Assembly (NCBI GenBank): GCA_019747795.1
Contig: JAIEQK010000035.1
Coordinates: forward strand, 3,665-67,664
Length of the DNA: 64,000 nucleotides
Reading direction: 5' to 3'
Origin: Gammaproteobacteria bacterium
Lineage (GTDB): Bacteria > Pseudomonadota > Gammaproteobacteria > Ga0077536
This document shows positions 29,220 to 63,364 of the stretch, one piece after another (the stretch's first letter is position 1; each line of letters begins with the position of its first letter). The position numbers and the translations under genes were made by a program. The notes under the pieces are model-generated. The model was given only the letters and a program-made list of their open reading frames with translations, made no database searches and was not told where the DNA came from.

Positions 29220-30167
29220 TCAGGGCGGCGTCGCCAGGCGACACGCGTGGCCGCGCTGGCCGGTCTCCACCTGCAAGGTTGCGTGCTGGATGCCGTGCTC
29301 GTGGGCGAGTGCCAGCGCCAGCGCATCCAGCCAGTCGTCGCCCGGATGACCGTCAGGCATCACCAGGTGCGCGGTGAGCGCGACCTCGGTGGTGCTGAGC
29401 GCCCACACGTGCAGGTCGTGCACGCCCGCGACTCCGGGCTGGGCGGCGAGGAAGGCCTCGATGGACGCGCTCGCGAGGTGCGCCGGCACCGCGTGCAGGG
29501 ACAGGAGCGCGCTGTCGCGCAGCAGTCGCCAGGTCGCGCCCAGCACCACCGCCACCACCAGCAGCGACACGGCCGGATCGAGCCAGGTCCAGCCGGTGCG
29601 CAGCATGGCGAAGCCGGCGAGCGCGACGCCGAGCGACACGAGCGCGTCGGTCAGCATGTGCAGGAAGGCGCCGCGCTGATTGAGGTCGTGCTGGTGCCCG
29701 TGGTGAAACAGCAGGGCCGTGCCGCCGTTCACCACCACGCCGGCCAGCGCGACAGCGATGACCACGCCGCCCGCCACCGGCGCGGGCGCCAGCAGGCGCT
29801 GCACCGCCTCCAGTACCAGGCCGCCGCACGCGAGCAGCAGGAGCACCGCGTTGGCCAGCGCCGCGAGGATGGTGGAGCTGCGCAGACCATAGGTGAAGCG
29901 CGGATTGGCCGCGCGCCGCGCGAGCCAGGCGGCGAACCAGGCGAGCGCCAGCGCCGCTACGTCGCTCAGGTTGTGTACCGCGTCCGCCACCAGCGCGGTC
30001 GACTGCGCGGCGAAGCCGAAAGCCAGTTCCAGCGCGACGAAGCTGCCGTTCAGCACGATGCCCCAGGCAAAGGCGCGCTGCCGATCCGGCACGGCCCCCG
30101 GGCCATGCGCGTGGGCATGAGCGTGGTGGTGATCGTGGCCGTGGCCGTGATCGTGGGGCGGCGTCAT
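29220..30167 (-). CDS. cation diffusion facilitator (CzcD/ZitB-like) metal exporter with His-rich N-terminus
   Basis: The ATG (cat 30165..30167) overlaps the upstream stop (ATGA). N-terminus is MTPPHDHGHGHDHHHAHAHAHG. CDF motifs are ADAVHNLSD and HMLTDAL. Confidence 0.85.
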   Translation of the reverse strand: MTPPHDHGHGHDHHHAHAHAHGPGAVPDRQRAFAWGIVLNGSFVALELAFGFAAQSTALVADAVHNLSDVAALALAWFAAWLARRAANPRFTYGLRSSTILAALANAVLLLLACGGLVLEAVQRLLAPAPVAGGVVIAVALAGVVVNGGTALLFHHGHQHDLNQRGAFLHMLTDALVSLGVALAGFAMLRTGWTWLDPAVSLLVVAVVLGATWRLLRDSALLSLHAVPAHLASASIEAFLAAQPGVAGVHDLHVWALSTTEVALTAHLVMPDGHPGDDWLDALALALAHEHGIQHATLQVETGQRGHACRLATPP

Positions 30168-30924
30168 GTCTTGCCCGTCTCGGCGCGCGGCGTCGCGCCG
30201 CACAGGAAATTCACCAGCCAGCGTGCGAGCAGCGCGCCGTCGGTGGGCGCGTCCATGCCGCCGAGCGCGGCGTCGATTAGTGCGTCCGGCGCCAGCCCGC
30301 GCTTGTTGGTGGTGATCGCCTCGGCGTAGGCGCGCTCGAACTCCGGGTGACCCTGCACGCCGAGCATCACCTCGTCCAACACGAACATGGCGTTCTCGCA
30401 GTGCGCATTGGTGGCGAGCCGCGTGGCGCCCGGCGGCAGCGTCAGCACCTGGTCCTGGTGCACGGCGTAGAGCGTGAAGTCGCGCGCGGCGGGCAGCATC
30501 CAGGGACGCGTCTCCAGCACCGCGCTGCGCTGCGTGCCGAGGCCCCAGCCCTGCGGCGCGCGGGCGGCGTGGCCGCCGAGCGCGTGGCCGATCAGCTGAT
30601 GACCGAAGCAGATGCCGACGGTGCGGCGCCGCGCCGTGTGCAGCGCGCGCAGGAACGCGGCGAGCCGCGCGATCCACGGCAGGTCCTCGTACACCGAGCG
30701 GCGCGAACCCGAGATAAGCCAGGCATCGCATTCGTCGACGCTCGCGGGAAACTCGTCGGCGTGCACGCGGTACACGCGCAATTCAACCCGCGGCGCGGAC
30801 GACGTCAGCAGGCGCGCGAACATGTCGGCGTACTGCCCGTGGGCCTCGCCGAGCGGCGCGTCAACCGTGTCGCAGGCCAGGAGGCCGACGCGTAGCGACT
30901 CACAGGGTGTGGAGGTACCAGTCA
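30164..30924 (-). CDS. class I glutamine amidotransferase-like protein
   Basis: The nucleophile elbow is GICFGHQ, and the C-terminal half contains HPEF. The start at 30924 would overlap the upstream gene by 25 nt, so it is uncertain. Confidence 0.7.
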
Positions 30925-32258
30925 TAGTCCTGCTGTGGCACCTGCGCGAACCAGCGTTCGCTCTCGGTGCGCTTGACGGCGATGAACACGTCGATGAAAC
31001 GCTCGCCCAAGGCTTCGCGCGCGAAGCGCGACGCGGCGAGCGCCTCGATGGCCTGCGGCCAGTGGCGCGGCAGCGGCACGCCGCCCGTCTGGGCATAGCC
31101 GTCGCCCTCGACCGGCGGCCCGGGATCGAGCGCGTGCACGAGGCCGTGGCGCGCACCGGCCAGCACGGCCGCGGCCGCGACATAGGGATTGGCGTCGGCG
31201 CCGCAGACTCGGTGCTCGATGTGTCGCGAGGCGGCCGCGCCACTTGGAATGCGCAGCGCCACGGTGCGGTTGTTGACGCCCCAGCTCGGCGTCAGCGGCA
31301 CGCAGTTGTAGGGCGCGAAGCGGCGGTAGGAATTGGCGAAGGGCGCGAACAGTGCCATCAGTTCCGGCGCGGTCGCCGCCATGCCGGCGAGCGCGTGGCG
31401 CAGCAGCGCGTTGCCGCCTGGATCCTCGCTCGCGAACACATTGCGTCCGTCAGCGTCGTTCAGGCTGAGATGCAGGTGCATGCCGGAGCCGGGTTTCGCC
31501 GCGAGCGGCTTGGCCATGAAGGACGCGAGCAGGCCATGGCGCCGTGCGACGCCACGCACCGCGCGCTTGAACAGCACGGCCTGGTCGAGCGCGCGCAGCG
31601 CGTCGTCCTGGTGGGCGAGCGTGACTTCGAACTGCCCCGGCCCGAACTCCGACAGGCTGTTGACGAGCGGCAGACCCTGCAGTGCGCAGCAGCGGTGCAG
31701 GTCATCGAGGAAGGCCTGCTGCGCTTCGATCTCCTCGACGCCGTAGACGTGCGGATGGGCACCGCGCGGCGTCGCGGTGCGCGGCGCGCCGCCGCGGTAG
31801 TCGGCCTCGAACAGGTAGAACTCCCACTCCACGGCGAGCACCGGCGTGTAGCCGAGCTCGGCGAGTCCGGCGATGGCGCGCGCGGCGAGATGGCGCGGAT
31901 CGGCGAGCGTCGCCGGGCCGCCGTGCGCCGGGTCGAAGCTCAGCAGCGCCTGCGCGCTCGGCGTCGCGAGCCACGGACAGGGCAGCAGGGTGCCGGGCAC
32001 CAGGCGCGCGAGCCCGTCCATGTCACCGACCTCCCACACCAGCCCCGAGCCCTCGGAGTCGTCACCGTCGACGGTCAGCGCGGCGATGGAGCTCGGCAGC
32101 GGCAGGCCGTCGTGGAAGACGTGATCGAAGGCCTCGATGCGCACCGACTTGCCGCGCGCGATGCCGTTCAGATCGGTGAACAGGAGCTGCACCTGGCGCA
32201 CCTCCGGATGGCGCGCGCGCCACGCGGCGAGCTGGGCCGCGGCGTCTTCAGTGCTCAT
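30900..32258 (-). CDS. glutamine synthetase family protein (gamma-glutamyl-polyamine synthetase, PuuA/SpuB-like)
   Basis: The ATG (cat 32256..32258) overlaps the permease stop (ATGA). Contains EWEFYLF, GSGMHLHLSL and NRTVALRIP. Confidence 0.85.
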   Translation of the reverse strand: MSTEDAAAQLAAWRARHPEVRQVQLLFTDLNGIARGKSVRIEAFDHVFHDGLPLPSSIAALTVDGDDSEGSGLVWEVGDMDGLARLVPGTLLPCPWLATPSAQALLSFDPAHGGPATLADPRHLAARAIAGLAELGYTPVLAVEWEFYLFEADYRGGAPRTATPRGAHPHVYGVEEIEAQQAFLDDLHRCCALQGLPLVNSLSEFGPGQFEVTLAHQDDALRALDQAVLFKRAVRGVARRHGLLASFMAKPLAAKPGSGMHLHLSLNDADGRNVFASEDPGGNALLRHALAGMAATAPELMALFAPFANSYRRFAPYNCVPLTPSWGVNNRTVALRIPSGAAASRHIEHRVCGADANPYVAAAAVLAGARHGLVHALDPGPPVEGDGYAQTGGVPLPRHWPQAIEALAASRFAREALGERFIDVFIAVKRTESERWFAQVPQQDYDWYLHTL

Positions 32259-33064
32259 CGGGGGCTCGCCTCGTCGGCGCGGAGGTTGAGCAGGGTGGCG
32301 ACGACCACGCTCGCGCCGACCACCAGGAGCAAGATCGTGGCCAGCGCATTGATCTCCGGCGACAGGCCGAGCCGCACCTTGGAGTAGATGACCATCGGTA
32401 GCGTCGTCGCGCCGGGCCCGGACACGAAGCTCGACGTGACGAGATCGTCCAGCGACAACGTGAAGGCCAAGAGCCAGCCCGCCAGCAGCGCGGGCGCGAT
32501 CAGCGGCAGGGTGACATGCTGGAACACGCGCCACGGCGGCGCGCCGAGGTCCTGCGCCGCTTCTTCGACCGCCGGGTCCATGCCCACCAGCCGTGCCTGC
32601 ACGACCACTGTCACGTAGGCGGTGGCGAAGGTCGAGTGCGCGAGCACGATGGTCAGCATGCCGCGCCGCGCGGGCCAGCCCAAGGTCTGTTCGAGCGCGA
32701 CGAACAAGAGCAGCAGGGACAGACCGATGATCACCTCCGGCATCACCAGCGGCGCGGTGACGAGGCCGGAGAAGAGCGCGCGGCCGCGAAACGGCCCGAA
32801 ACGCGCCAGCGCGAGCGCGGCCAGCGTGCCGAGCACCACGGCCAGGGTGGCGGTCACGGCCGCGATGCGCAGCGACAGCCATGCGGCGTCCAGCACCTGC
32901 GTGTCGTGCAGGAGCGCGCCGTACCACTTGGTCGAGAAGCCCGACCACAGCGTGACCAGGCGTGATTCGTTGAACGAGTAGATGACCAGCGAGGCCATCG
33001 GCAGGTAGAGAAAGGCGAGCCCGGCGATGAGCCAGGCGCGCAGCCAGATGCCGCCGCGCTTCAT
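32255..33064 (-). CDS. potI: polyamine ABC transporter permease (PotC/PotI-like)
   Basis: The ATG at 33064 overlaps the upstream stop (ATGA). The EAA-type loop is EEAAQDLGAPPWRVF. Confidence 0.85.
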   Translation of the reverse strand: MKRGGIWLRAWLIAGLAFLYLPMASLVIYSFNESRLVTLWSGFSTKWYGALLHDTQVLDAAWLSLRIAAVTATLAVVLGTLAALALARFGPFRGRALFSGLVTAPLVMPEVIIGLSLLLLFVALEQTLGWPARRGMLTIVLAHSTFATAYVTVVVQARLVGMDPAVEEAAQDLGAPPWRVFQHVTLPLIAPALLAGWLLAFTLSLDDLVTSSFVSGPGATTLPMVIYSKVRLGLSPEINALATILLLVVGASVVVATLLNLRADEASPR

Positions 33065-33957
33065 GGCGCGGTACGCGCGGCGCGGCGCGCGAGCCCGTGC
33101 TGCAAGGCCATCAGCACCACCACCAGCGCGAGCATTGCGATGGCGACCGCAGAGGCCACAGGCCAGGCGCGGTTGGCGAAGAACTCGTCCCACAGCACCT
33201 TGCCGATCATGAGCGTGTTCGAACCACCCAGCAGGTCGGGAATCACGAACTCGCCGAGGGCCGGAATGAACACCAGCGCGCTGCCCGCCAGTACCCCTGG
33301 CAGGGACAGCGGCAAGGTCACGCTGAGGAAGGCCCGCCAAGGCGGACAGCCGAGATCGGCGGCGGCTTCCAGGAGCGCGTGGTCGTGCTTCTCCAGATTG
33401 GCGTAGAGCGGCAGCACCATGAACGGCAGGTAGGAGTAGACGATGCCGAGATACACCGCGAAGTTGGTGCGCAACAGCGTGAGCGGCTGGTCGACGAGCC
33501 CGAGCGCGAGCAGGAGCTGATTGATCGTGCCCTGACTGTTCAGAAGGCCCATCCAGGCGTACACGCGCAGCAGGAAGGAGGTCCAGAACGGCAGCACCAC
33601 CAGCATCAGCAGCAGGTTGCGCCGCGCGGGCCGCGCGCGGGCGATGGCATAGGCCATGGGATAGCCGATCAGGAGACACAGGAGCGCGGAGACGAAGGCC
33701 ACCTGCACGGAGTTCAGGTAGGCGCGCCAGTAGAGCGCGTCCTCGACCAGGTAGCGATAGTTCGCGAGATGCAGCGCGAGGTGCAGGCCGCCGTCGGCGT
33801 CGCGCGAGAAGAGCGGGCTGTAGGGCGGCTGCGCGATCAGCTGCTCGGCGAAGGAGATCTTGAGCACGATGAGACAGGGCAGGGCGAAGAACAGGCCGAG
33901 CCACGCGTAGGGCACGAGGATCACGCCACGATGGCCGGCGTGTTCGCGGGCGTTCAT
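33061..33957 (-). CDS. potH: polyamine ABC transporter permease (PotB/PotH-like)
   Basis: The ATG at 33957 overlaps the ATPase stop (ATGA). The loop is LEAAADLGCPPWRAF. Confidence 0.85.
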   Translation of the reverse strand: MNAREHAGHRGVILVPYAWLGLFFALPCLIVLKISFAEQLIAQPPYSPLFSRDADGGLHLALHLANYRYLVEDALYWRAYLNSVQVAFVSALLCLLIGYPMAYAIARARPARRNLLLMLVVLPFWTSFLLRVYAWMGLLNSQGTINQLLLALGLVDQPLTLLRTNFAVYLGIVYSYLPFMVLPLYANLEKHDHALLEAAADLGCPPWRAFLSVTLPLSLPGVLAGSALVFIPALGEFVIPDLLGGSNTLMIGKVLWDEFFANRAWPVASAVAIAMLALVVVLMALQHGLARRAARTAP

Positions 33958-56506: not shown

Positions 56507-57121
56507 TCAGGTCGCCGGCATCTTCAGGTCGTGAAGATACTTCTTCAAGCCGTTGATCGAGGACCGAAAGATGCCGCAATCCTGAGAGTTCTTCGCAAGT
56601 CCCACGGCGCCCTGCAGCGACGCGATGACGAAGTAGGCGACCTCGTTCGCATCGACCTCCGGCCGCAGCAGACCGCGCTGCTGGGCGCCGGCCAGGGCGT
56701 TCTGCACCGCGCGATGCCAGCGCCGATAGACGCGCTCGATGCGCTGGCGAAAGCCCTCGTCCAGCGGCGACATCTCCTGCGCCAGGTTGTTGATCGGGCA
56801 GCCACAGGCGAGGCGCTGGCCGGCGAGGAACTGCTCTTCTTCGTCGAGCAGGCGGCAGATGCCCTCGATGGGATCCTCCGCGCTGAGCGCCGCGTCCCAG
56901 GCCGCCACCGCGCGGGGGGCGAGCACGTCGTCCAAGACCGCGTAGCCGAGCTCTTGCTTGCTGGCGAAATGGTGATAGAGCGCGCCCTTGGAGATCCCCA
57001 GCCGCTTCAGCATCTCGCACAGCGAGGCGGACTGGTAACCGACCCGGTAGATCTCCTCGGCGGCGGCCTCGAGGATCTTCTCGCGGGTCACTTCGGCCTT
57101 GAGGTCGCGTTGTGTCACCAT
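56507..57121 (-). CDS. TetR/AcrR family transcriptional regulator
   Basis: Internal ATG (cat 57119..57121). The HTH is ILEAAAEEIYRVGYQSASLCEMLKRLGISKGALYHHFASK. Confidence 0.85.
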   Translation of the reverse strand: MVTQRDLKAEVTREKILEAAAEEIYRVGYQSASLCEMLKRLGISKGALYHHFASKQELGYAVLDDVLAPRAVAAWDAALSAEDPIEGICRLLDEEEQFLAGQRLACGCPINNLAQEMSPLDEGFRQRIERVYRRWHRAVQNALAGAQQRGLLRPEVDANEVAYFVIASLQGAVGLAKNSQDCGIFRSSINGLKKYLHDLKMPAT

Positions 57122-57134
57122 GGAGCGAAGAATA

Positions 57135-57154
57135 CAAACCGGTCGGTCGGTTTG
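57135..57154. promoter_or_regulatory. inverted repeat CAAACCG-N6-CGGTTTG, putative TetR autoregulatory operator
   Basis: It lies 14 nt upstream of the tetR ATG and is preceded by the same AT-rich tgaaaaattttt module found after the tetR stop. Confidence 0.45.
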
Positions 57155-57176
57155 CAAGGCGTGAACGAAAAATTTT

Positions 57177-58034
57177 TCAGGGCGCCGACTGCTCGGTCGG
57201 CGGACGCGTGTTCGCGTTGGGTATGAACAGCTGACGACCCTGGGGCCGGAACGCGGCAATGGCGGCCTGGCCCTCCGTGCCGAGCAACCAGTCCTGCAGG
57301 CGGCGGGCTTCGACCGCATGCACGTGCGGATGGCGTCGTGGGTCGACCAGGATCAGGCTGTACTGGTTGCGCAGCGCCGGGTCGCCGGACAAGAGTTCAG
57401 CCAGCCCCTGGCGGTCGGTATAGGTCGCCCAGCTCGCGCTGTCGGTCAGCGTGTAGGCGCCGAGTTCGCGCGCCACGTTGAGCGTCGACAACATGCCGCT
57501 GCCGGTGTCGCGGTACCAGCGCTGGAGCGCGGGGTCCGGGCTGTGGCCCGCGGCCTTCCACAGTGCCTGCTCGCGCACATGGGTGCCGCTCAGATCGCCG
57601 CGGGAGGCGAACAGCGCGCCGTGAACGGCAATACGTCGAAAGGCCTCGGCGGCATCCGGCGCGCCGCGCACGCCGGCCGGATCTTTCACGGGTCCGACCA
57701 GCACGAAGTCGTTGTACATCAGGGGTTCGCGGGCCAGGCCTTCGCCGTCGGCGATGAAGCGCGCCTCGGCATCCGGGGCGTGGACCAGGGCGAGATCGCC
57801 GTTACCCGCCCGGCAGTTGGCGAGCGCCTGCCCGGTGCCGACCGCGATGACGTGGACCTCGATGCCGGTCGCGGCGGTGAAGCGGGGCAGCAGGGCGTCG
57901 AACAATCCCGACGCCTGGGTGGAGGTGGTGGACTGCAGCAGCAGGTAGGACCTGTCGGCGGCCTGCGCCGCCAGCGCCAGCAGGGCGAGCAGCGCGCCGA
58001 GGGCGCGCCGCCACGCGAACTCAGTCGCGCGCAC
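57177..58034 (-). CDS. periplasmic oxyanion-binding protein, TupA (tungstate)-like, without cognate ABC permease/ATPase
   Basis: Signal peptide is ALLALLALAAQA. Contains STTSTQASGLFDALLP...VIAVGTGQAL...DLALVHAP, resembling the TupA TTTS-motif family. Confidence 0.7.
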   Translation of the reverse strand: MRATEFAWRRALGALLALLALAAQAADRSYLLLQSTTSTQASGLFDALLPRFTAATGIEVHVIAVGTGQALANCRAGNGDLALVHAPDAEARFIADGEGLAREPLMYNDFVLVGPVKDPAGVRGAPDAAEAFRRIAVHGALFASRGDLSGTHVREQALWKAAGHSPDPALQRWYRDTGSGMLSTLNVARELGAYTLTDSASWATYTDRQGLAELLSGDPALRNQYSLILVDPRRHPHVHAVEARRLQDWLLGTEGQAAIAAFRPQGRQLFIPNANTRPPTEQSAP

Positions 58035-58602
58035 CGCCCGCGGCCCGCCGCGAGAGGTCGACCAGCAGCGTGCCGATCACCGCGCCCACCGCACCGAAGC
58101 CGAAGTGGGTCATGATCGAGAACAGCGGGCCATGGCGCAGCTTGCCGAGATGCAGCTGCACGCCATGGGCGAGCAGGTAGACCGCGAGCGGCTTCAGCAT
58201 GAAGGCGACGCCGCCGGTCAGCGCGACCAGTGCGAGGTGCCGGCTGCGACGCAGGCCGGCAAGCCACGCGCCGTCGACCGCCAGCGCGCAGAGCCCGTAG
58301 ATTGGCGCCTGCATGCTGGCGCCCGCGCCGTGCGCGAGCAGCGCGATGGTGCCCACGTAGCCCGCGGCGGTGGTGACCGCCGCCCAACGCATGTTCGACC
58401 CGTTACGCGCCACCATCACGCCGGCCATCCACACCAGGCCGTAGTGGCCGGGCAGGCCCAGGTCGATGTCCCAGGCGCGATGGCCGAAGGCCAGCAGCGC
58501 GCCCAGGCCGAGCAGCGCGAGCAGGTGGCCGAGGCCCGCCTGCTCAGGGACGGAAGCGCTTGATGCGCTGCTTGTCTGCGACGACGTAATCGTGCGAGCC
58601 AT
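58021..58602 (-). CDS. hypothetical integral membrane protein (about 5-6 TM)
   Basis: 193 aa, with a hydrophobic profile and high GC3. It overlaps both neighbours (14 nt and 59 nt). No family recognised. Confidence 0.55.
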   Translation of the reverse strand: MARTITSSQTSSASSASVPEQAGLGHLLALLGLGALLAFGHRAWDIDLGLPGHYGLVWMAGVMVARNGSNMRWAAVTTAAGYVGTIALLAHGAGASMQAPIYGLCALAVDGAWLAGLRRSRHLALVALTGGVAFMLKPLAVYLLAHGVQLHLGKLRHGPLFSIMTHFGFGAVGAVIGTLLVDLSRRAAGGARD

Positions 58603-59362
58603 CTGTCGTGTTCTCCACCAAAAGTACCGAAAGTCCGCCCACGCGTACCGGCCGTGCCCAGTCGCCGAGCGTCACCCGCGCCGTGTCCGGCAGGCAGTCG
58701 CCGACCGTGTCACTGTTGAACGTGCGCACTGCGTCCAGGCCGGTCTGCGCGCGCAGCGCGCCGACTTCGTGCACGCCGCCACCGAGTTCGCGCAGTCGCT
58801 TCAGCCACAGGTACCGGCCGTCGTCGCCCTGCATGAACAAACCCACCCCGGCCAGCGCGCCGATGATACCGCCGTGGGTGCCCGTCAGTCCCGTGAGACG
58901 GATGCCGGCCGCTGCCGCGGTCGCGCGCGCCCGTTCGCGGTCCAGCACTTCGCGCTGCGCCGAGAGCGCGTAGTCGACGACGCGCGCGGCGGCGTCTGGT
59001 GTCGCCACGCACAGACCGACGTCCGCACCGACCGCCGCGACTTCCAGCAGGAATTCGCGGCAGTAGGTTTCGACTTCATCCTCGGACGCGCGCGCGGCGA
59101 GTTGCAGGCAGGCCGAGCTGTTGTGCGAGGTGTAGGGAATGCGCGGGTCGACCAGCAGCTGATGGCGCGTGATGCCGCGCATCTCGGCGAGGCCGGCGTC
59201 GGCCAGGCCGCGCGCCAGCGTGCGGGCGCGATAGCCCGTGCCGCGCGTGTCGAGATTGTCGGTGTCGTCGATGCCGACCAGCAGATCGATGCCGGCGGCC
59301 GACGTCCGCGCGAGCGCGGGATTCATCGTGGGAGCCTTGCCATGGGTGGCATTGTCTTGCAC
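58544..59362 (-). CDS. protein resembling the N-terminal kinase-type domain of archaeal TiaS (DUF1743-like), lacking the OB/Zn-ribbon parts
   Basis: LLVGIDDTDNLDTRGTGY, LLVDPRIPYTSHNSS and THGGIIGALAGVGL parallel the TiaS segments GIDDTDS..G.CTTY, LNPNIPYKTRGNG and GRGLIGALAAVG as I recall them. The track start is GTG at 59362; an ATG at 59326 is an alternative. Confidence 0.55.
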   Translation of the reverse strand: MQDNATHGKAPTMNPALARTSAAGIDLLVGIDDTDNLDTRGTGYRARTLARGLADAGLAEMRGITRHQLLVDPRIPYTSHNSSACLQLAARASEDEVETYCREFLLEVAAVGADVGLCVATPDAAARVVDYALSAQREVLDRERARATAAAAGIRLTGLTGTHGGIIGALAGVGLFMQGDDGRYLWLKRLRELGGGVHEVGALRAQTGLDAVRTFNSDTVGDCLPDTARVTLGDWARPVRVGGLSVLLVENTTDGSHDYVVADKQRIKRFRP

Positions 59363-59376
59363 GTAAGGCGCATGCG

Positions 59377-62139
59377 CTAGAGCAGTTCGAGATCGAAACC
59401 GAGATAGAGAAAGCGCCCGGCCTGCGGCAGGCCGTAGGCTTCGGCATAGGACTCGTCCAGCACGTTGTCCGCGCCGACGAAGACCTTCAGCCGCGGCGTG
59501 CCGAGCGGCCGCGCCACGCGCAGGTTGAGCAGCGCATAGGGCGACAGCATGCGCGTGCGCGGCGGGCCGAAGCGCGAGAAGTAGAACTCGCCGCCGACGA
59601 ACTGGAAGCTCGCGCTCGCCAGGGTGCCGTCGTCGAAGCGCTGACTGGCCTGCGCCGCCACCTTGTGCCTGGGCCGGTACTGGAGCTCGTCGCGCAGCGA
59701 GGCGTCGGAACGATCGCGGGCGTGCAGGTAGGACCAGGACGCCGCCAGCTCGCGCCCACCGGCGAGCGCCGCCCGCGCCGCGAGTTCCAGACCTTGAAAG
59801 CGGAAGCGCTGGTTGTTGGCGAACTCCTCGGTCACCGGATCGCGGTCGATGAAGTTCTCCACGTCGCTGCGGAACAGCGTCACTCCGAGCACCGCCGGCG
59901 CCAGGCCCGCGTACTCGGCGCCGAGTTCATAGGTCATCGCGCGCTCCGGCGCGAGTTCGGGGTCACCGGACAGCGTGTCGTAGAGCTGCTGCACCGAGGG
60001 CAGACGCAGCTTGCGCGCGAAGCCGGCGCGCAGCCGCAGGTCAGGCGTCACCGCCCGCGACAGGCCGCCGGAGAAGCTGCCGTGCACTTCGCTCGCGCCG
60101 TCGTCGCGCTCGAGCCAGTGCACGGCGTAGCCGAACACCACGTCCACCCAGCCGAGCGGCGCGGCACTGAGTTCGAGCGCGCTGCTCGCGATGTGCAGCG
60201 TGCGCGACTGGCTGAAGGGGCGCAGATCGAAGGTCACGGCGTCGAAGCGCGTCGGCGTGCCGCCGCCCGAGCCGTCGCCACCGCTGCCGCAGCCAGTGCC
60301 GGCCGGCGGTACGTTGACGACCGGCGTGGTGTCCGGCGGCTGCGCGCCGGTCAGCGCGGTGGCGCTGGTGGGCGCGACCAGGAACACCGCCAGACCGCCG
60401 GGGCCGCCGGTCGGCGGCTCGGACGGACCCCAGAAGCCGTTCGCGTCGACCTGGCGAAGTTCCAGTGCGGCGTAGGCGGGCGGGCGGCCGCCGCTGCTGG
60501 TGGCGGAGAAGCGCAGCAGTTCGGCGAGCGTCGCGCGCTCGTAGGTCCAGCGCGCGGTCTCGCCGTCGAACAGCGGATCGGCCGCGCCGTTGGCGCCGCC
60601 GGGACGCTGCCAGCCGATACGCGCGCGGAAGCGGTAGTTGTTGATCACGTCGCCCGCACCGGGGGCGGCGAAGGCGCTGGCGTTGCCGGTGCTCGCATCG
60701 CTGGTGGGGTCGTAGAGCAGGTTCCAGTCGCTGATGTCGAGGCCCTGGTCGGGCAGCAGGTAGAGGCGCGACGCGTAGGCCGCGGGCACCGCCGGCCCCG
60801 AGCCGCCGTTGACGAAGAAATTGCCGGCCGCGAGGCTCTTGAAGCTGAAGTCGACGCCGCCGCGCCCGTTGTCGGTCATGGTCAGGCTCGCGATCGGCTC
60901 GTTGTCGCCGGCCGCGTTGGTCGCGCCGAAGTTGTTGGTCGCGAGGTAGTTGAACAAGAGCGTGGCGCTGGTCGCGTTGCCGAGAGTGACGGGGCGCGGC
61001 CTGGTCGGCGGCGGCAGGCGTGGCACGTCGCGGGTCAGGCAGTCCTGGCTGAAGTGCTCCTGGCGCGCCTCTACCATCCAGGTCAGCGCGCCGCCCCAGT
61101 CGTGGGCGAGGCTCAGCTCGTTGTGGAATCCGAATACCCGCGAGTCGGCGTCGTCGGCGAAGGTGCCGCGCACGTGCGGGTCGTCGAGCCGGGGCGCGAA
61201 CGGTGAGCTGTAGCGGTTGGTGTTCTCGGCCAGGGTGTTGACGTAGGCCCAGCCGCGGTCGGCGAGCCGGCCGTCCGGGTCCCACTCGAAGCCGGCCTGC
61301 AGCGACAGGGTCTCGTCGTCGTCCACGCGCTGCCAGCGCGGACGGTTGGCGAAGCCGTCGGCCTCGTCGTCCACCACCGTGCCGGGCGCGCCGAAGCCGC
61401 CGCGACTGTAGGTGAAGGTGCCGCCGAGGGCGAGATCGTCGTTCACCCGGTGCCAGCCGTTCAGGTAGGCGTGGTTGCGTTCGCGATCGCTGTTGGCGCG
61501 CAGGCCGCCGTGCTCGAGGCTGGTTTCGCGCAGGTTGGCCGAGAGCGGAAAGCCGTCGCGCGCGTTCCGTCCGGCCGCGGCGAACACGCCGCTGGTCTCG
61601 CTGCCCCAGCCATAGGTGCCGTACACGCGATGGTGATCGCCGCTGCCGTATTCGGCGTGGGTCGTGGCACTCTGGCCCGGCTCGGCCTGGCGCGTGATGA
61701 CGTTGATGACCGCACCGACCGCGCCGTCGCCGTAGAGCGTGGAGCTCGCGCCGGTGGTGAGCTTGATGCGCGCGATGTTCTCCGCCGGGATGAGCGTCGG
61801 GTCGAACTGGCCGTCGAAGGTGTTGCCGAAGGGCACGCCGTTCAAGAGCAGCTTGACCTGGCGGGTGCGGTAGCCGCGCACGTCGATGCGCGGGCTGCCG
61901 TTGCCGCCGGTGCGGACGTTGAGTCCGGGCAGCAGCTCGAGCGCATCTTCGAGGCTGCGCGCGCCGCGCAGCTCGATGTCGGCGCGGTCCACCGAGTACA
62001 CGGTGGCGACGCGCTCGACGGTCGGCTGGCGCGCGCTCACCACCACTTCGTTCAGGCCGTCGGGGGCGTTCGCGGCGTGCGCCGAGCGCATGCCGAGCAG
62101 CAGGAGCGCCAGGCTCAAAATCGGAAGAAGCCTGCACAT
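59377..62139 (-). CDS. TonB-dependent outer-membrane receptor with about 260-aa insertion
   Basis: The ATG at 62139 gives the signal peptide MCRLLPILSLALLLLGMRSAHA. Plug motifs are VVVSA, IELRGARSLEDALELLPG and IDVRG. The C-terminal barrel ends LGFDLELL. Confidence 0.85.
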   Translation of the reverse strand: MCRLLPILSLALLLLGMRSAHAANAPDGLNEVVVSARQPTVERVATVYSVDRADIELRGARSLEDALELLPGLNVRTGGNGSPRIDVRGYRTRQVKLLLNGVPFGNTFDGQFDPTLIPAENIARIKLTTGASSTLYGDGAVGAVINVITRQAEPGQSATTHAEYGSGDHHRVYGTYGWGSETSGVFAAAGRNARDGFPLSANLRETSLEHGGLRANSDRERNHAYLNGWHRVNDDLALGGTFTYSRGGFGAPGTVVDDEADGFANRPRWQRVDDDETLSLQAGFEWDPDGRLADRGWAYVNTLAENTNRYSSPFAPRLDDPHVRGTFADDADSRVFGFHNELSLAHDWGGALTWMVEARQEHFSQDCLTRDVPRLPPPTRPRPVTLGNATSATLLFNYLATNNFGATNAAGDNEPIASLTMTDNGRGGVDFSFKSLAAGNFFVNGGSGPAVPAAYASRLYLLPDQGLDISDWNLLYDPTSDASTGNASAFAAPGAGDVINNYRFRARIGWQRPGGANGAADPLFDGETARWTYERATLAELLRFSATSSGGRPPAYAALELRQVDANGFWGPSEPPTGGPGGLAVFLVAPTSATALTGAQPPDTTPVVNVPPAGTGCGSGGDGSGGGTPTRFDAVTFDLRPFSQSRTLHIASSALELSAAPLGWVDVVFGYAVHWLERDDGASEVHGSFSGGLSRAVTPDLRLRAGFARKLRLPSVQQLYDTLSGDPELAPERAMTYELGAEYAGLAPAVLGVTLFRSDVENFIDRDPVTEEFANNQRFRFQGLELAARAALAGGRELAASWSYLHARDRSDASLRDELQYRPRHKVAAQASQRFDDGTLASASFQFVGGEFYFSRFGPPRTRMLSPYALLNLRVARPLGTPRLKVFVGADNVLDESYAEAYGLPQAGRFLYLGFDLELL

Positions 62140-62227
62140 TTTAGGCGAGGAGGGCGTCAAGTATCCTGGGCTCGGCGGGTTGCGCACACTACCGACGTGA
62201 CGGCGCCGTCCTCAATCAGCATAGTCG

Positions 62228-62240
62228 TTCATATATGGAA
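62228..62240. promoter_or_regulatory. AT-rich near-palindrome TTCATATATGGAA in divergent promoter region
   Basis: It is the only AT-rich element between the TBDR and the ModE-type regulator. The core CATATATG is palindromic. It is followed by the hairpin ccgtggccc-tcc-gggccgcgg. Confidence 0.35.
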
Positions 62241-62299: not shown

Positions 62300-63364
62300 A
62301 TGGGCACGCCCATGAAGATCGGCCTCGCGCTCGCCTGGCGCATCGAACTCGATGGTGTGGAGTACGACCTCGAACCATTGCTGTTCGATCTTCTGGCCGC
62401 GGTCGAGAAGGGCGGTCATCTGAACTATGCCTCGCGCGCCACCGAGGTCTCCTACCGTCACGCCTGGGGACTGATGCGCACCTGGGAGGCTCGCTTCAAG
62501 GCGCCGCTGGTCGACCTGCAGCGCGGCCGCGGCGCGACCCTCACTGACATTGGCCGCGCGCTGCTTGAGGCGCGCGAACGGGCCCAGCTCGCGACCGGGC
62601 CGACGCTCGCCGACGCCGCAGGTGAGGCCGGAGGGCGCCTGCAGCAGAGCATGGGCGATGCGCGCGTCACGCTCCGGGTCGCGTCCAGTCATAGCGATCT
62701 CCTGACCGGCCTGGTCGACGCCCTGGACGCCTCGCGCTGGCAGGCGGTGCTGGACGTCATCGGCAGCGAGGCCGCGCTGCGGCGCTACCAGCGCGGCGAC
62801 ATCGATATCGCCGGATTCCATCTGCCGCTCGGCGAACTCGGACCGACCGTCGGGCTCAACCTGCTGGCCCTGCTGGACGACGCGCGCGACCAGGTCTTCC
62901 TGCTGGAGATGCGCGCCCTGGGCCTGGTCTCATCGCCCCAGGCGCCCGTGACCACGCTCGAGGCGCTGCCGGGAAGCGCGCTCCGCTTCATCAATCGACA
63001 GCCGGGATCCGGCACGCGCCTCGTGTTCGACGGACTGCTCGGGCTGCGCGGCATCGCGCCCGGCGCCATCCTGGGCTATCGCAACGAGGAGTACACCCAC
63101 TCGGCGGTGGCGGCGATGGTGGCGAGCGGCGGCGCCGACGCGGGCTTCTGCACCGCCAGCGCGGCGGCCCGTTTCGGGCTGCACTTCCAGCCTTTCGTGC
63201 AGGAGCGCTTCTACCTCTGTCTACGGCGCTCGGCACGGCGCGAGCTCGTCGAAGCCGTCACGAGCTATGTCGCGAATGCGCTGAACGCCGGTGCCACGCC
63301 CCGCAGCCTGAACGAGGTGCAGCCCGGCGTCGCGCTGCTGCGACGCCTGCACACCTCGCTCTGA
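62300..63364 (+). CDS. transcriptional regulator with ModE-type N-terminal wHTH and PBP-like (type II periplasmic-binding-fold) ligand domain
   Basis: GHLNYASRATEVSYRHAWGLMRTWE resembles the ModE HTH (...ISYKSAWDAI...). The C-terminal part has FINRQPGSGTR and a PBP-like pattern. An alternative ATG is at 62312. Confidence 0.7.
   Translation: MGTPMKIGLALAWRIELDGVEYDLEPLLFDLLAAVEKGGHLNYASRATEVSYRHAWGLMRTWEARFKAPLVDLQRGRGATLTDIGRALLEARERAQLATGPTLADAAGEAGGRLQQSMGDARVTLRVASSHSDLLTGLVDALDASRWQAVLDVIGSEAALRRYQRGDIDIAGFHLPLGELGPTVGLNLLALLDDARDQVFLLEMRALGLVSSPQAPVTTLEALPGSALRFINRQPGSGTRLVFDGLLGLRGIAPGAILGYRNEEYTHSAVAAMVASGGADAGFCTASAAARFGLHFQPFVQERFYLCLRRSARRELVEAVTSYVANALNAGATPRSLNEVQPGVALLRRLHTSL

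Follow-up and report, generated by a model that had tools for sequence, protein, structure and literature searches.

The window analysed here, a stretch of 64,000 nucleotides from a gammaproteobacterial genome (contig JAIEQK010000035.1, positions 3,665 to 67,664), encodes on its minus strand a protein that, as judged by profile comparison and a predicted structure, is a true remote homologue of the TCKD (Thr18-Cyt34 kinase domain), the kinase-type domain of the tRNA-modifying enzyme TiaS, which is the archaeal tRNA(Ile2) 2-agmatinylcytidine synthetase. The protein belongs to a bacterial family in which the TiaS kinase fold is found with a new architecture and probably a new function, and it is encoded within a widespread gene pair tied to the acquisition of tungsten or molybdenum. 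To our knowledge, the TiaS kinase fold has been known from a single enzyme activity, that of archaeal tRNA modification. The other member of the pair is a six-helix membrane protein resembling ECF (energy-coupling factor) transporter S-components, and the TCKD-like gene probably belongs to an undescribed route for acquiring the two metals or their cofactor. The gene and the two domains of its product are located in the window as follows:

58544-59362, minus strand: TiaS-TCKD-like protein of 272 aa if started at the GTG at 59362 (open reading frame list)
58829-59284, minus strand: TCKD-like domain, residues 27-178 (TiaS profile match and Foldseek alignment)
58547-58828, minus strand: beta-rich, family-specific C-terminal domain, residues 179-272 (secondary structure of the model)

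The GTG at 59362 is followed in frame by an ATG at 59326 that has an AAGG sequence 8 nt upstream, a site that the GTG does not have. The ATG gives a product of 260 aa, which is also the length of the 98%-identical homologue P0001, and it is the likelier start for these two reasons. An earlier note on this DNA, made from the sequence alone, had proposed that the open reading frame encodes a stand-alone bacterial homologue of the TiaS kinase-type domain, based on three collinear motif blocks. The three blocks are indeed present in this order: LLVGIDDTDNLDTRGTGY (residues 27-44), RHQLLVDPRIPYTSHNSS (residues 66-83) and GTHGGIIGALAGVGL (residues 161-175). The TiaS counterparts that the note had given agree with the sequence of A. 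fulgidus TiaS (GIDDTDSSRGMCTTY; LNPTIPYKTRGNGA; GRGLIGALAAVGA). The motifs of the domain are G30-x-D32-D33-T34-D35-N36, R40-G41-T42-G43, T65-R-H-Q-L69 and P76-Y-T-S-H-N-S82, followed by G161...G165-x-x-G168...G174-L175.

Searches with the single sequence gave matches to TiaS-type families that are weak yet consistent. The NCBIfam TiaS model (NF040849) aligns with residues 27-176 over model positions 3-153 (E 2e-6), at a score of 26.6 bits that lies below the equivalog cut-off of 600 bits. Pfam TiaS_TCKD (PF22641) matches with an E-value of 2.6e-4 and 21.4 bits, under its gathering score of 27. The best NCBIfam match is TIGR03280, methanogenesis marker 11 (E 2.8e-10), for which 39.8 bits were obtained against a cut-off of 255.8 bits and only the model's C-terminal half (positions 135-285) is aligned. 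A protein of P. furiosus with the protein data bank (PDB) entry 3U02 was also identified (E 0.003). An alignment of 46 relatives, termed A1, was used for the family profile, the conservation analysis and the AlphaFold model. TiaS_TCKD is the only Pfam domain found in these 46 proteins and matches 39 of them at E<=1; among the 120 relatives listed with precomputed Pfam domains, PF22641 is recorded on five. When compared with PDB sequences, the A1 profile identified the TiaS chains 3AU7, 3AMT and 4RVZ at E 1.5e-7 to 3e-7, with an alignment that takes in the whole TCKD (TiaS chain residues 2-151), and 3U02 at E 1e-6.

The AlphaFold model of the TCKD-like protein (pLDDT 91, pTM 0.88) showed structural similarity to the same proteins. 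Foldseek analysis against the PDB placed five TiaS entries at the top (E 5e-9 to 1e-5, root-mean-square deviation (rmsd) 2.1-3.0 A), with alignments of approximately 153 columns at 19-26% identity; four of the five, 3amu, 5xob, 4rvz and 3amt, lie within E 5e-9 to 5e-8 and rmsd 2.1-2.5 A. Entry 3U02 was matched at E 3e-7, and beyond it and the TiaS entries no PDB match fell under E 0.01. In the HMMER alignment, G30, D32, D33, T34, D35 and T42 are placed on G6, D8, D9, T10, D11 and T18 of TiaS, and all six are invariant across the 46 members of A1. Thr18 is the residue after which the TCKD domain is named, and TiaS autophosphorylates it; the enzyme cuts ATP at the alpha-beta bond and then transfers a phosphoryl group. 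The catalytic roles of the DDTD and Thr18 residues of TiaS are reportedly those described by Terasaka in 2011 and Osawa in 2011. Profile search, superposition on TiaS crystal structures and mapping of the DDTD aspartates had all been suggested as checks in the earlier note, and its proposal of a bacterial TCKD homologue is borne out by the profile matches, by the predicted structure and by the motif alignment, in which D32, D33 and D35 fall on the three TiaS aspartates.

Two further features of this domain were observed. The next structural neighbours after TiaS are 6-hydroxymethyl-dihydropterin pyrophosphokinases (HPPK; E about 0.02, probability 0.9-0.98), a weak match to a fold that is a common alpha/beta sandwich. 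HPPK splits ATP at the alpha-beta bond and its substrate is a pterin. Three cysteines, C85, C101 and C118, are invariant or nearly so in the bacterial family and absent from TiaS. They are located on neighbouring strands and one helix of the TCKD core, where they could form a metal or redox site.

The alignment with TiaS structures ends near residue 178, leaving the C-terminal domain outside. This domain contains the invariant residues G179, G182, R183, W186, R191, W235, L247 and K268. It had no Pfam match at E<=10 in the window protein, nor in any of the 46 members, and a profile built from 19 sequences of the domain found no real match among PDB sequences. The ferredoxin-like domain (FLD), OB domain and zinc ribbon of TiaS were not detectable in the TCKD-like protein by Pfam scans or PDB profile search, and the protein is 260-272 aa long versus about 420 for TiaS. 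The earlier note had pointed out that the OB-fold and zinc-ribbon parts are missing, which holds on both counts. The TCKD-like protein is not a TiaS, since it lacks these three domains and its TiaS score is far under the equivalog cut-off.

The TCKD-like gene is part of a large family. Of the 8,000 candidates scored in a word-indexed search, more than 4,700 reached E<=1e-3, nearly all of them 240-265 aa in length and without a name. An exhaustive profile search of representatives at 50% identity identified 363 clusters at E<=1e-30, 809 at E<=1e-10 and 1,129 at E<=1e-3. The phylogenetic survey of the short bacterial form, also suggested by the earlier note, showed that a relative is encoded in at least 588 of 185,579 species genomes in several phyla. 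The carriers include members of the Gamma-, Beta- and Alphaproteobacteria, Chloroflexota (Anaerolineae), Bacteroidales, Actinomycetes and Acidobacteria, together with a metagenome-assembled genome of the Bacillaceae. Oxalicibacterium, Herminiimonas glaciei and Lentisalinibacter sediminis are among the carriers in culture. A search of the available literature found no publication on a bacterial TiaS-like family. In a few NCBI records, relatives are annotated as 'ABC transporter substrate-binding protein'; this name is rejected because the protein has neither a signal peptide nor a binding-protein fold. Among the longer relatives, no fusion of the TCKD-like protein with its membrane partner was found, the additions being N-terminal extensions and a Cys-rich tail. 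In a subgroup (P0206, 316 aa; P0267, 301 aa), a C-terminal extension bears the pattern CFNC...RRW...C and is possibly a small metal-binding tail.

The membrane protein directly follows the TCKD-like gene in the window:

58021-58602, minus strand: 193-aa membrane protein of six helices whose fold resembles that of ECF S-components (open reading frame list, model and fold search)

Its ATG lies inside the TCKD-like gene with a GGAG sequence ahead of it, so that the two genes overlap by 59 nt. Gene orders were compared over 87 loci, 81 of which have room downstream of the TCKD-like gene. In 73 of these 81, a hidden Markov model of the membrane protein identified its gene directly downstream on the same strand, in most cases with an overlap, and in two further loci it is found a few kb onward. 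The pair is coupled in Proteobacteria, Chloroflexota, Bacteroidota, Actinomycetes and Firmicutes. Alignment of the membrane proteins (A2) shows a conserved LPGHHG motif, an invariant D110, a Lys-Pro motif, H166 and a Ser-rich N-terminal tail. This Ser/Thr-rich cytoplasmic tail, MARTITSSQTSSASSAS, precedes the first helix (58545-58602, minus strand), and its Ser positions are conserved across phyla; the kinase-like protein encoded next to it might phosphorylate this tail.

The model of the membrane protein (pLDDT 87.6) has six helices, and its best fold match in the PDB is the S-component 5EDL (TM 0.61, probability 1.0). Other S-component matches include 4rfs_S, 5kbw, 5kc0 and 4hzu_S; PanT, RibU and another S-component were likewise obtained. 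A profile of the membrane protein gave no match to PDB sequences, and the fold search alone is informative in the PDB; two of 30 members of the membrane-partner family have a sequence match to an S-component family. Independent evidence comes from locus L030 of the Anaerolineales, in which the TCKD-like gene is followed by a fused EcfAA', EcfT (CbiQ), a further membrane open reading frame and then a member of the membrane-protein family that passes Pfam PF09819, an S-component family. A search with this S-component brought up the partner proteins of 36 loci at about 30% identity. The gene order of L030 recurs in L028 and L049, so that complete EcfAA'T operons are present in three of the 87 loci, all from Anaerolineae. 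No EcfT homologue was found in the genome of the window, and the window membrane protein would therefore be a solitary S-component. BtuM is a precedent, being a solitary S-component that works behind BtuB without a dedicated motor (PMC6072759).

The remaining features of the window operon and its divergent promoter region are:

59377-62187, minus strand: TonB-dependent outer-membrane receptor whose plug and barrel are BtuB-like, encoded at the head of the operon (Plug and TonB_dep_Rec_b-barrel domains)
57177-58034, minus strand: TupA-like periplasmic oxyanion-binding protein (PBP_like_2, E 6.6e-32)
62300-63364, plus strand: divergent regulator with a ModE/LysR-type helix-turn-helix (HTH) and a PBP_like domain (PF12727, E 1.1e-40; ModE repressor domain, E 1.7e-7)
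62228-62240, no strand: TTCATATATGGAA box, a candidate operator in the divergent promoter region, assigned from sequence only

The operon thus runs from the TonB-dependent receptor through the TCKD-like protein and the S-component-like protein to the TupA-like binding protein, with the regulator encoded divergently. The best NCBIfam match of the receptor is TonB-B12, below its cut-off. The TupA-like protein scores 203 bits against the TupA model NF041772, which has a cut-off of 400, and carries the motif STTS; its counterpart in L004 carries TTTS, the motif of TupA (PMC5517513). The regulator shares its HTH and PBP_like architecture with TaoR, which has been characterised and regulates a tungsten enzyme (PMC11980592). 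Boxes akin to the window's CATATAT box (GCATATATCA) are present in the intergenic regions between the regulator and the TCKD-like gene of L012, L013 and L014, and in weaker form in L011 and L001. TunR, another tungsten or molybdenum regulator, also has the HTH and PBP_like architecture of the window regulator. Rfam analysis of the whole window gave no match. After the TupA-like gene lies a TetR-family regulator gene (56507-57319, minus strand), which L007 and L008, the two closest relatives, also retain.

The window's genome encodes one copy each of the TCKD-like, membrane and TupA-like proteins. On the minus strand of another contig (C287, about 29700-33100), this genome encodes an oxyanion ABC transporter set among molybdenum cofactor biosynthesis genes, in the order moaA, a tupB-like permease, a tupC-like ATPase and mobA, and no binding-protein gene is present there. 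Because of this, and because the TupA-like protein is single-copy, the latter is the probable orphan partner of the tupBC genes on C287. A TilS-type PP-loop candidate for AUA decoding is also encoded in the genome, with a score below its cut-off.

Genes with a tungsten or molybdenum theme are found beside the pair in several phyla, and the gene orders that recur in three groups are:

Proteobacteria: TonB-dependent receptor, TCKD-like protein, membrane protein, with or without a substrate-binding protein
Bacteroidales: regulator, TCKD-like protein, membrane protein, 310-aa lipoprotein, TonB-dependent receptor
Anaerolineae: regulator, 150-aa lipoprotein, TCKD-like protein, membrane protein, TupA-like protein, TupB-like protein, ATPase

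A TonB-dependent receptor adjoins the pair in 46 of the 87 loci, and TupA-like binding proteins are present in 32. For four other associated binding proteins, TupA is the sole NCBIfam family matched, at about 220 bits versus the cut-off of 400. The permease of the Chloroflexi operons matches TupB and then ModB, and the ATPase matches WtpC first and is WtpC/ModC-like. A homologue of the regulator is encoded next to the pair in L001, in L011-L014 and in the Chloroflexi loci. Exported proteins of 500 aa match Oxidored_molyb, and their C-terminal part shows homology to the 150-aa lipoprotein.

Several accessory elements of these loci were noted. The 150-residue Oxidored_molyb-related domain occurs in three forms, namely alone upstream of the TCKD-like gene, repeated in the 500-aa exported proteins and fused to some of the TupA-like proteins; its sites as an exported lipoprotein domain include L045 9524-9943, L049 10838-12352, L030 7073-8380 and relatives. 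In nine Bacteroidales loci, a lipoprotein of approximately 310 aa with no Pfam match is always encoded between the membrane protein and the TonB-dependent receptor (L056 11269-12222). Rfam analysis of 17 related loci identified S-adenosylmethionine (SAM) riboswitches only, on the opposite strand. They lie upstream of Anaerolineae operons (L054 8133-8230, L045 8326-8421 and L062 457-553, all minus strand; also L065, L033, L035 and L038), and each probably controls the divergent neighbouring gene, outside the TCKD system.

The reading that we favour, and regard as moderately probable, is that the TCKD-like protein acts in the cytoplasm as an ATP-dependent enzyme and is coupled to an importer of the S-component type for the acquisition of tungsten or molybdenum, taken up as oxyanion or as pterin cofactor. 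The earlier note had described a TonB-dependent receptor upstream and a membrane protein downstream of the gene, as is the case (59377-62187 and 58021-58602), and had suggested recruitment of the domain to a small-molecule substrate. A non-translational and probably small-molecule role is indeed supported, and the support is wholly one of context: an S-component-like partner in 73 of 81 loci and TupABC-like, TonB-receptor and tungsten or molybdenum regulator neighbours in several phyla. In the proposed scheme, the TonB-dependent receptor would carry the substrate through the outer membrane and the TupA-like protein would handle periplasmic oxyanion, the genes for TupBC being located apart from the operon, next to moaA and mobA. 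The divergent HTH and PBP_like regulator would control the operon. The TCKD-like protein and the S-component, presumably in physical contact, would constitute the inner-membrane and cytoplasmic stage. The S-component-like protein would presumably transport inwards, and most likely imports a tungsten- or molybdenum-related solute, be it a metal-pterin cofactor, a breakdown product of it or the oxyanion itself. The enzyme would modify this solute with ATP, transferring a phosphoryl or pyrophosphoryl group once the alpha-beta bond is cut, as TiaS does, and thereby trap or activate it. Salvage kinases encoded beside vitamin S-components are a known pattern, and it is by analogy with this pattern that an enzyme acting on the imported solute is suggested.

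Both classes of solute have points in their favour. The oxyanion is suggested by the presence of Tup-like and PBP_like proteins. Three features point to a metal-pterin cofactor or fragment, namely that the carrier is of the vitamin type, that a TonB-dependent receptor is needed and that the same operons contain a Tup system of their own. In its narrower version, the TCKD-like enzyme and the S-component would be the core of a hitherto unrecognised uptake route for the molybdenum or tungsten pterin cofactor or a fragment of it. Entry in Gram-negative bacteria would be through the TonB-dependent receptor, followed by re-phosphorylation or pyrophosphorylation in the cytoplasm, a form of cofactor piracy comparable to haem or B12 uptake. 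This version taken by itself we consider unlikely.

A number of observations weigh against the acquisition reading. The binding of ATP and catalysis are deduced from motif conservation only, the residue mapping to the TiaS active site is limited to D8, D9, D11 and T18, and the TCKD-like protein lacks the FLD, a neighbour of that active site. The Tup-like components all score under the NCBI equivalog cut-offs (about 200-230 versus 400 bits), and tungstate or molybdate may therefore not be the anion. No molybdenum cofactor riboswitch was identified by Rfam in the 17 related loci nor in the window. The presence of moaA and mobA in the genome means that cofactor salvage is not obligatory, and several loci contain the pair with a TonB-dependent receptor only, or lie beside two-component and RND genes.

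The first alternative is a signalling module, in which the S-component-fold protein would be the receptor for a periplasmic or imported ligand and the TCKD-like protein its protein-kinase output, directed at itself, at the Ser/Thr-rich tail of the membrane protein or at a regulator. We judge this to be rather improbable. The invariant T42 aligns with the autophosphorylated Thr of TiaS and the membrane protein offers a conserved Ser-rich cytoplasmic N-terminus; however, no known phospho-acceptor partner is conserved beside the pair, and the operon already has a ligand-binding regulator in the protein with the PBP_like domain. The TiaS kinase domain is described as specific for both RNA and protein (PMC11938285), histidine kinases also use the S-component fold as a sensor domain (PMC11109136), and some loci have a response regulator and a histidine kinase just downstream. 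The location of the membrane protein within a complete ECF transporter operon in three loci argues for transport.

Slightly less probable again is that the TCKD-like protein is a new energising subunit, which in genomes without EcfT and EcfA would bind to the solitary S-component and cleave ATP to make it topple or release its substrate, making the pair a new kind of primary transporter. The tight translational coupling, the near-universal adjacency of the genes, and the lack of both an EcfT homologue in the window's genome and another ATPase gene in the window operon are in line with this. The TCKD-like gene nevertheless persists and heads the operon where the full EcfAA'T motor is present, and because of this the protein is unlikely to be a mere substitute motor; BtuM-type solitary S-components are also known without a dedicated one (PMC6072759).

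Finally, a TiaS-like kinase or ligase acting on cytidine or another nucleoside of tRNA or other RNA is rejected as very improbable, given the missing FLD, OB domain and zinc ribbon, the 26.6 bits against 600, the confinement of the structural alignment to the TCKD, a context of transport and not translation and the TilS-type candidate in the genome, even though the catalytic-type motifs of TiaS are retained and one JGI record calls a homologue TiaS. The gene context likewise speaks against the activity of TiaS itself, the ATP-dependent agmatinylation of C34 of tRNA(Ile2).

In bacteria, the TiaS kinase fold thus occurs as a widespread family whose architecture differs from that of TiaS and whose context is not one of translation. 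Under the acquisition reading, the pair bears on the supply of tungsten and molybdenum beyond ModABC, TupABC and WtpABC, namely on outer-membrane passage and possible cofactor salvage. If the enzyme does act on an oxyanion or a pterin, this would be new chemistry for the TiaS fold and a new type of partner for ECF S-components; should the pair take up the cofactor, this would provide the first small-molecule substrate for the TiaS kinase fold. The conserved pair is a concrete and genetically tractable candidate, present in cultured Herminiimonas, Oxalicibacterium and Lentisalinibacter.

Compared with known systems, the TCKD-like domain has the fold of the TiaS TCKD (PF22641; 3AMT, 3AMU, 3AU7, 4RVZ, 5XOB), with 25% identity over 153 columns. 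It shares with TiaS the G-x-DDTD motif, the Thr18 equivalent, the PY-T-x-x-N block and the G-x-x-I-G-A-L-A-x-V-G helix, whereas N36, R40, R47, TRHQL, SHNS, C101 and D114 are invariants of the bacterial family that TiaS does not have. In place of the ferredoxin-like, OB and zinc-ribbon domains of TiaS, the TCKD-like protein has a 95-residue beta-rich domain without known relative. TiaS is archaeal and the TCKD-like family is bacterial, and the latter is encoded with a membrane transporter and tungsten or molybdenum genes, not with translation genes. The structural genomics entry 3U02 (a 252-residue chain) and TIGR03280 likewise bear a TCKD-type domain; both are archaeal, and their architectures and contexts are unlike those of the bacterial family.

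The membrane partner resembles ECF S-components (the YkoE-type group I protein 5EDL and PF09819) in its six-helix fold and in having a cytoplasmic, presumably ATP-using enzyme encoded alongside. Its LPGHHG motif, D110, Lys-Pro and H166 are its own and distinguish it from S-component families. As with BtuM and BtuB, the Gram-negative loci have the membrane partner beside a BtuB-like receptor, with no ECF module in the genome. We know of no report of a TiaS-type enzyme as partner of a transporter, and in contrast to vitamin S-component systems, the regulon of the TCKD pair is one of tungsten and molybdenum. The likeness to TupABC and ModABC and to the regulators TaoR, TunR and ModE lies in the TupA-like protein with its S/TTTS motif, the TupB/ModB-like and WtpC/ModC-like proteins and the HTH and PBP_like regulator of the same loci. 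Unlike in Tup systems, the binding protein of the window is separated from tupBC, and the TCKD/S-component pair, the TonB-dependent receptor and the Oxidored_molyb-like exported domains are part of no described Tup or Mod system.

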